Below are positions 51,807-51,882 of a stretch of 64,000 nucleotides of DNA, in pieces. Made by a program: the position numbers and the translations under genes. Origin of the DNA: Candidatus Staskawiczbacteria bacterium RIFOXYB1_FULL_37_44 (GTDB taxonomy: Bacteria; Patescibacteriota; Minisyncoccia; Minisyncoccales; Staskawiczbacteraceae); contig MHPJ01000004.1 of assembly GCA_001822065.1 (NCBI GenBank), positions 12,574-76,573 of the forward strand, read 5' to 3'. The notes under the pieces are model-generated. The model was not told where the DNA came from, did not search any database, and worked only from the letters and a program-made list of their open reading frames with translations. Position 1 is the first letter of the stretch. Each line of letters starts with the position of its first letter.

Positions 51807-51882
51807 AGGAGCTAGAAGGATTTGAACCTTCGGCCTCTGCATCATAGTTATGCAGCGCTCTCCCGGTCTGAGCTATAGCCCC
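51807..51882 (-). tRNA. Ala-type tRNA (G3:U70) with a non-canonical 19-nt anticodon arm; anticodon undetermined (CUA in one fold)
   Basis: GGGGCTATAGCTCAGACCGGGAGAGCG-CTGCATAACTATGATGCAG-AGGCC-GAAGGTTCAAATCCTTC-TAGCTCC-T. All arms are canonical except the loop. Confidence 0.7.

Follow-up and report, generated by a model that had tools for sequence, protein, structure and literature searches.

What becomes of a tRNA gene whose anticodon arm no longer holds a usable anticodon? The question is raised by a 76-nt tRNA-shaped gene, derived from tRNA-Ala, at 51882..51807 on the minus strand of a 64,000-nt stretch of the genome of Candidatus Staskawiczbacteria bacterium RIFOXYB1_FULL_37_44 (the window), where it stands between the 16S rRNA gene and greA. 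Judged by its structure, position, reproducibility, origin, redundancy and pattern of decay, the element is probably a disabled, redundant rRNA operon (rrn) spacer tRNA-Ala(UGC), that is, a pseudogene or tRNA-like relic that would be excised but would not decode. Elements of this kind, degenerate spacer tRNAs of rrn operons or tRNA pseudogenes, are already known; the mildly interesting feature is that, across the clade, decay starts with the anticodon arm.

Outside that arm the gene is a regular tRNA. ARAGORN called it at 51806-51882 under the label 'tRNA-Pyl (cta)', that is, pyrrolysine tRNA, solely because a CUA triplet was read, and the Rfam tRNA model RF00005 matched it with 54.7 bits (gathering score 29) at E=5e-9 over the whole window, so that a chance match can be set aside; both programs count three tRNA genes in the window. 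Read 5' to 3', the sequence is GGGGCUA-UA-GCUC-AGACCGGGA-GAGC-G-CUGCA-UAACUAUGA-UGCAG-AGGCC-GAAGG-UUCAAAU-CCUUC-UAGCUCC-U, and its minimum free energy (MFE) fold is a cloverleaf with fully paired stems: acceptor 7/7 (51882-51876 with 51814-51808), D 4/4 (arm at 51873-51857), anticodon 5/5, or six with a U:A closing pair, and T 5/5 (arm at 51831-51815). The identity pair G3:U70 is formed by G 51880 and U 51810, the variable loop has 5 nt (AGGCC), the linker at positions 8-9 has 2 nt (UA), the 9-nt D-loop contains GGG, and the T-arm consensus GGUUCRANYCC is matched by GGUUCAAAUCC at 51828-51818. The discriminator is U73 (51807) instead of the A73 of tRNA-Ala, which is kept in related loci L119, L041 and L117. 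CCA is not encoded, an uninformative feature because the window's genuine tRNA-Thr(UGU) lacks an encoded CCA as well. An earlier note, made from the letters of this stretch, had described just such a tRNA-Ala-like body with G3:U70 and normal D and T arms; ARAGORN, Rfam and the fold agree with it and with its location at 51807-51882. The strand, however, is minus, 51882 being the 5' end, and the note had given the reverse complement without marking it as such.

The anticodon arm (51855-51837, minus strand) is aberrant. It is 19 nt long and can be read as CUGCA-UAACUAUGA-UGCAG, a 5-bp stem with a 9-nt loop, or as CUGCAU-AACUAUG-AUGCAG, a 6-bp stem with the 7-nt loop AACUAUG, the latter being the MFE version. 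Both the 19-nt length and the two alternative folds had been proposed in exactly this form, as had the observation that the CUA of the 7-nt loop is flanked by neither U33 nor a purine at position 37 (R37): the residues are A33 and U37. No UGC, GGC or CGC stands in frame in either loop. Seven contigs, obtained from different samples and with different assemblers (European Nucleotide Archive re-assemblies, the NCBI metagenome-assembled genome (MAG) GCA_001820475.1, and Logan), agree in every letter of a 27-nt string across the arm, and this 7/7 identity across assemblies marks the odd arm as genuine genomic sequence, not an indel artefact. Modelled on these folds, the arm may be taken as a lesion that would disable decoding. 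A dispersed repeat or mobile palindrome as the source of the arm was rejected, the 19-mer being unique in the window with up to 3 mismatches allowed. A likeness of the arm to the terminator hairpin, noticed by eye (shared CUG..UAA..UAUG..CAG), was too gapped to interpret.

The element sits exactly where an rrn spacer or distal tRNA would, in an operon without its 23S. The bacterial 16S rRNA gene (52049..54528, minus strand), delimited with Rfam and by blastn against the uninterrupted 16S of L121, is split by a 1012-nt insertion (53519-52508) and has its 3' end at ~52049-52051. A 168-nt spacer therefore separates it from the element, and this is the distance behind the earlier description 'directly downstream'. 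RNAduplex pairs a 5' leader half of a 16S processing stem (54529..54645, minus strand) with a 3' trailer half (51891..52036, minus strand), which the spacer alignment shows to contain the clade-invariant block CUUAUUCGAAACAACUUU. The duplex scores -60.4 kcal/mol (RNAduplex, without a shuffle control), and the stem is supported by a 15-nt perfect leader/trailer complement inside the block that is invariant across the aligned spacers of relatives. The element's 5' end lies 8 nt past the trailer helix and its 3' end 3 nt ahead of an intrinsic terminator (51774..51803, minus strand), a 9-bp hairpin GCCACUGUAAUAUGCAGUGGC at 51803-51783 with a U-run to ~51774; it thus occupies, on the rRNA strand, the interval between processing helix and terminator that characterizes an rrn spacer or distal tRNA, and no further promoter or terminator comes in between. 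Upstream of the 16S, a consensus scan located a sigma-70-like promoter candidate (TTGACA-17-TAATAT, 54838..54866, minus strand, 10/12 match) that, from its sequence, would drive the unit of 16S and tRNA-like gene. The terminator at 51774-51803, a promoter-like site upstream of the 16S and the overall context of 16S, tRNA and terminator were thus correctly recognized in the earlier note, with co-transcription presumed from the shared strand, the stem and the terminator position. Patescibacteria commonly have rRNA genes that are not linked to one another (bioRxiv 10.1101/705046).

Loci of relatives were gathered with GreA as the synteny anchor, which makes the sampling unbiased with respect to tRNA sequence; greA is the next gene downstream of the element (51267..51743, minus strand; Pfam GreA_GreB_N and GreA_GreB). 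The set comprised 80 loci from species-representative genomes and 80 metagenome loci. ARAGORN alone missed degenerate elements, so a purpose-built covariance model (R1) was added, and as R1 with default filters missed L117, the search was repeated unfiltered. The order tRNA-Thr, 16S, slot, greA, tRNA-Ala(UGC) is conserved in the clade. In the loci that reach as far as the tRNA-Ala(UGC) on the greA side, this gene hardly varies: its loop is UUUGCAA, and ARAGORN, whenever it calls the gene, reads UGC in a normal loop. In the window this functional paralogue, a genuine tRNA-Ala(UGC) with encoded CCA, lies at 48555..48628 on the plus strand, where ARAGORN and Rfam both place the normal copy that the earlier note had reported. 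This second, conserved tRNA-Ala(UGC) covers GCN decoding, so the spacer copy is redundant.

The ancestry of the window copy can be read from nine elements that share its acceptor type, GGGG.../...CUCC with G3:U70. All stand 49-91 nt upstream of greA except that of L094, which a second element follows, and a terminator hairpin comes directly after the element wherever the flank was read, with an analogous hairpin and T-run in L121, L041, L119, L117, L107 and L065. In L119 the slot holds, at 271-344 and 52 nt upstream of greA, an intact tRNA-Ala(UGC) with a normal UUUGCAA loop (Rfam 74.9 bits). It shares with the window copy the unusual D-loop A[A/G]ACCGG[U/G]A (AAACCGGUA in L119, AGACCGGGA in the window), the T-loop and G3:U70, and what sets the bodies of the two apart are compensated pairs at 5:68 and 6:67 of the acceptor and in the T stem. 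Its anticodon arm, AUUGC-UUUGCAA-GCAAU, is completely different from, and unrelated in sequence to, that of the window. A similar gene with a normal CUUGCAG loop is present in L107. On this sequence comparison, the ancestor is an ordinary tRNA-Ala(UGC) at the position of the window element.

The remaining Ala-type elements are broken in various ways: a 5-nt loop on a new stem UCCCG/CGGGA in L121, 36-nt structured insertions in L041 and L094, a 64-nt insertion in L125, a loop of ~3 nt with degenerate D and T loops in L117, and degenerate D and anticodon arms in L065, L104 and L105. Rfam scores form a graded series, from 74.9 bits (L119) and 65.8 (L107) through 54.7 (window), 53.9 (L094) and 53.4 (L041) to 48.9 (L125), 41.9 (L121) and 36.5 (L065), with L117 not reported at all. 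Their nearly identical terminators mark L119, L041 and L121 as close relatives; despite this, L119 is intact while L041 and L121 are broken differently.

Across the ~160 loci, the slot between 16S and greA holds zero, one or two tRNA-shaped genes with very diverse bodies. ARAGORN and the covariance model together yielded 45 distinct spacer elements, of which 33 have non-canonical anticodon loops. A canonical 7-nt loop with U33 and R37 is found in 12/45; loops are shortened to 3-6 nt in another 12/45, extended to 8-10 nt in 11/45 and interrupted by insertions of 14-64 nt in 8/45, and 2/45 have 7-nt loops without U33 or R37. All four stems are nevertheless fully paired in 11 of the 33 elements with non-canonical loops. 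At the far end of the series, L097 and L092 retain a T-arm remnant alone before the terminator, and many loci have a short spacer in which even the unfiltered covariance-model search found no element. The distant relatives L059 and L045 carry a normal tRNA-Ile(GAU) in the slot (75-79 bits).

Some of the anticodon-loop insertions are structured (L041 1337-1438, L094 705-806, L153 785-887, L034 3591-3691, L103 1045-1140, L125 1185-1315 and L144 2302-2410). Each folds as an extended hairpin, and a length of ~36 nt recurs: three unrelated sequences have 36 nt, two more have 35 and 30 nt, and 64 and 27 nt occur elsewhere. The slot also houses a 'Gly-type' family with the acceptor GCG.../...CGC and U73. 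Its GCC loop is apparently intact in L009 (700-775) and L158 (492-566), and loops are broken or odd (CAAUUAA, a 6-nt CUGCGU, 8-nt loops) in L023 (1702-1774), L011 (3787-3857), L100 (890-962) and L107 (400-474), so that decay beginning with the anticodon arm is not confined to Ala-type copies.

Is this decay, or is something still being selected? Between L119 and L041, trailers are 97% identical, tRNA bodies 77% and anticodon stems 20%; between the window and L121, bodies are 86% and trailers 76% identical. By these figures, conservation of the element does not exceed that of the sequence on either side. Flank-level conservation, the many losses and the processing helix that the 16S has of its own make a redundant gene decaying repeatedly and independently the simplest reading. 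Several features expected of a tRNA pseudogene are in place, namely a lesion at a functional site, a functional paralogue, and graded decay and loss in relatives. Among the three roles suggested in the earlier note, a decaying spacer tRNA is therefore the best supported, given the intact counterparts in L119 and L107, the graded series and the many losses, and the random decay in relatives that it had named as grounds for a pseudogene is largely what the series displays. Covariation, which it had proposed to look for in orthologous spacers, is present at acceptor pairs 5:68, 6:67 and 7:66 and in the T stem of the Ala-type elements, but the anticodon loop is not conserved.

Like the bacterial spacer or distal tRNA-Ala(UGC) of rrn operons arranged as 16S, tRNA-Ile, tRNA-Ala, 23S, the element lies on the rRNA strand, within the unit and after the 16S stem, has a textbook body (GGGGCUAUAGCUCAG...GAGAGCG) with G3:U70, and is represented by an intact UGC version in the L119 slot. 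It differs from them in that a terminator and then greA follow instead of a 23S, in its 19-nt arm without UGC, in U73, and in the presence of a separate decoder tRNA. With tRNA pseudogenes it shares tRNA origin, a lesion at a critical site, a nearby functional paralogue and a patchy, graded distribution. The window copy departs from them in a cloverleaf that is flawless outside the anticodon loop, and across the clade lesions concentrate in the arm yet keep a perfect hairpin.

Mechanistically, a disabled spacer tRNA would behave as follows. The RNA would form the final part of the 16S primary transcript. Once that transcript had been cut within the leader/trailer helix, the intact acceptor/T-arm minihelix of the tRNA-like part, with a proper elbow, would be recognized by RNase P and the 3' trimming enzymes, releasing a small tRNA-like RNA as from any spacer tRNA. 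Its anticodon arm having been rewritten into a perfect hairpin, neither the 9-nt nor the non-canonical 7-nt loop would be able to present an anticodon properly. Alanyl-tRNA synthetase (AlaRS) recognizes G3:U70 and not the anticodon, and weak alanylation via this pair is conceivable even with U73 in place of A73. The element would then stand outside decoding, an evolutionary relic on its way to loss.

Several observations weigh against such a relic. For a pseudogene, the window copy has suffered remarkably little: pairing is perfect in each of the four stems, and U8, A14, the D-loop GG and the T-loop UUCAAAU are kept. Pairs 1-4 (G1-G4:C69-C72, including G3:U70) are invariant in 9/9 Ala-type elements, broken ones included, which could reflect continued selection for AlaRS recognition and not recency. 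Most Ala-type anticodon stems are paired although their sequences are unrelated, and pairing that outlasts a full turnover of sequence is unlike decay by point mutation; it suggests a special mutational process or structural selection. Finally, among spacer elements as diverse as these, with Ala-, Gly- and Ile-like bodies, orthology is only partly settled.

The strongest alternative, which we nonetheless regard as unlikely, gives these features a function: a retained, non-decoding tRNA-like RNA, kept by selection as RNase P/RNase Z punctuation that would define or shield the 3' end of the 16S transcript, or as an AlaRS-chargeable alanine donor in some non-ribosomal reaction, with the anticodon arm free to vary. 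The perfect cloverleaf of the window copy, the invariant G1-G4 and G3:U70, the covarying acceptor and T-stem pairs, the 11 odd-loop elements with four intact stems and the paired anticodon stems would all fit it, as would the place of the element always just ahead of the terminator in loci that have it. A documented precedent exists in the t-elements of plant mitochondria, tRNA-like processing signals (Forner et al. 2007, PMC1920247). Like these, the element has a tRNA-like fold with a GGUUCRANYCC T arm, is embedded in a longer transcript and is a plausible substrate of RNase P and RNase Z, whose cuts would set the transcript ends; if the fold matters, t-elements may be its closest functional analogues. 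It differs from them in being dispensable in many relatives and in having beside it a 16S with its own helix, and a processing role here is conjectural. What counts against retention is that the element is missing in many clade members, that the 16S has a conventional processing stem in which it takes no part, that its conservation is no better than that of the flanks and sometimes much worse, that it degenerates by degrees to remnants, and that U73 departs from the tRNA-Ala identity set; the stem covariation, moreover, could have been inherited from functional ancestors. A tRNA-like processing signal, another of the roles put forward in the earlier note, is thus possible as such, but the element is not needed for 16S release, as a leader/trailer stem brackets the 16S and many relatives lack the element; as a 16S 3' processing signal it is weakened accordingly.

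A bolder version, for which we see even less probability, holds that Staskawiczbacteria retain, where the 16S transcription unit ends, a family of tRNA-shaped RNAs lacking an anticodon for a non-decoding task (end maturation or protection through RNase P, or alanine donation), and that active rewriting of the arm produces one new perfect hairpin after another, possibly through template switching or inverted duplication. In L094, part of the insertion, CUGUAAAC, nearly complements the old loop region GUUUGCAG (UUUGCAG loop), which at the sequence level hints at template-switch or inverted-duplication mutations.

That the element decodes after all, as an amber suppressor (CUA, inserting Ala at UAG) or as a quadruplet or frameshift decoder using the 9-nt loop, is highly improbable. 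ARAGORN does read a CUA anticodon, the MFE fold does present the 7-nt loop AACUAUG, and G3:U70 would allow charging by AlaRS whatever the anticodon. Expanded-loop frameshift suppressors of the SufJ and sufA6 types also exist (PMC4238358). They resemble the element in having a loop of more than 7 nt on an otherwise normal tRNA body, but their loops have 8 nt, with U33 kept and one extra base next to the anticodon; they belong to a defined codon context and were discovered through their suppressor function. The element's loop has 9 nt, is without a U33/R37 frame and is unconserved in relatives. CUA is flanked by A33 and U37, and on a 5-bp stem the 9-nt loop has no register with U33 as well as R37. 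Beyond the one species to which the seven identical contigs belong, the loop is not conserved: elements of the same type have 5-nt, ~3-nt or normal 7-nt loops or 36-64-nt insertions. Nor does the coding sequence point to recoding: RF1 is encoded in the window, TAG ends 14 of 63 open reading frames (ORFs) of at least 150 amino acids (~22%), read-through is not apparent, and dropping TAG from the stop codons gives no greater gain in ORF length than dropping TGA. Stop-codon reassignment was accordingly rejected, as alternative stop sets gave no TAG-specific signal and RF1 is present. The suppressor or frameshift role entertained in the earlier note is thus not supported, with U33 and R37 missing, the loop unconserved, RF1 present and no TAG signal.

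Two specialized RNAs invite comparison at this point. With tRNA-Pyl the element shares the CUA triplet and a possible 6-bp anticodon stem, but it shows none of the traits that define tRNA-Pyl: a variable loop of 3 nt, a single-nucleotide linker at 8-9, a small D-loop lacking GG, and G73. With transfer-messenger RNA (tmRNA) it shares an Ala-identity acceptor (G3:U70) and the want of a usable anticodon; tmRNA, unlike the element, has an mRNA-like ORF and pseudoknots and no anticodon arm. A tmRNA was rejected, since ARAGORN, which also searches for tmRNA, reported none and Rfam matched the tRNA family alone.

That sequencing or assembly introduced an indel into what is really a regular tRNA-Ala(UGC) has next to no probability: the arm does exceed the usual length by exactly 2 nt, and a normal loop in an orthologous locus, which the earlier note had named as pointing to such an error, does occur in L119, but the deduction of a 2-nt indel fails, because the arm string is identical in seven independent contigs and differs from the normal arm at nearly every position. 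An archaeal origin with a bulge-helix-bulge micro-intron was likewise rejected, since GreA, EF-Ts, YchF and RF1 are of bacterial type and the DNA comes from a Staskawiczbacteria MAG.

The host is a tiny groundwater bacterium of the candidate phyla radiation (CPR), Candidatus Staskawiczbacteria, and not an archaeon. The top Rfam small-subunit rRNA model for the window 16S is archaeal because the gene is split by the 1012-nt insertion; the 16S genes of relatives score 1200-1370 bits on the bacterial model. Flanking genes encode GreA, EF-Ts, YchF, ribosomal proteins and RF1, and GreA is 100% identical to that of Candidatus Staskawiczbacteria RIFOXYD2_FULL_37 (GCA_001820475.1). The RF1 homologue (59442-60260, plus strand, 272 amino acids) has prfA as its best NCBIfam match and the same gene call in other assemblies. 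It matches prfA profiles from ~position 103, with 364 bits against a full-length cut-off of 400, and from its sequence appears to be without most of the N-terminal domain.

The 16S gene and its surroundings offered further observations. The 1012-nt insertion lies at ~position 1041 of an uninterrupted relative's 16S and contains an ORF of 160 amino acids (52623-53105, minus strand) with no Pfam match. A population variant, L001 (8720-9566), is 100% identical save for an extra 847-nt insertion with a LAGLIDADG ORF at 16S position ~1369, showing that intron presence varies within the population, and the 16S of L045 carries two Rfam group I introns. The 16S 3' end (52049-52062, minus strand) reads GGAUCAUUUUUU, with ...GUGGAUCAUUUUUUU(A)n in the window and in essentially every locus of Staskawiczbacteria relatives; the canonical CCUCC anti-Shine-Dalgarno tail is absent clade-wide from these 3' ends, and L059, a more distant relative, ends in GGAUCAUCUCAUAU. 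The leader stem is separated from the promoter-like site by a terminator-like 20-bp hairpin with a U-run (54713-54758, minus strand), which could be an attenuator, an antitermination-related leader structure or a mere leader fold. Upstream of the 16S, the clade-conserved tRNA-Thr(UGU) (56970-57042, minus strand) has the T-loop UCCGAAU, with C at the universal U55 (pseudouridine) site. On the other side, otsA (GT20 trehalose-6-phosphate synthase) and otsB (trehalose phosphatase) occupy 48675-51274 (plus strand) between greA and tRNA-Ala(UGC). In most relatives tRNA-Ala directly follows greA, and the otsA/otsB pair looks like a lineage-specific insertion.

Annotation and genetic-code inference for this CPR lineage should adopt neither the 'tRNA-Pyl(CUA)' label nor the idea of a suppressor or quadruplet decoder. 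We found no description of 16S-linked degenerate tRNAs in CPR in the literature. In this clade one can follow, with unusual clarity, the natural stages by which a spacer tRNA that has become redundant dies after the rRNA operon is unlinked: the anticodon arm gives way first, repeatedly and in various ways, while the minihelix of acceptor and T arm endures. If selection lies behind this endurance of the fold and of G3:U70, the elements would represent, in bacteria, a counterpart to the t-elements of organelles or to Ala-accepting RNAs of the tmRNA kind.

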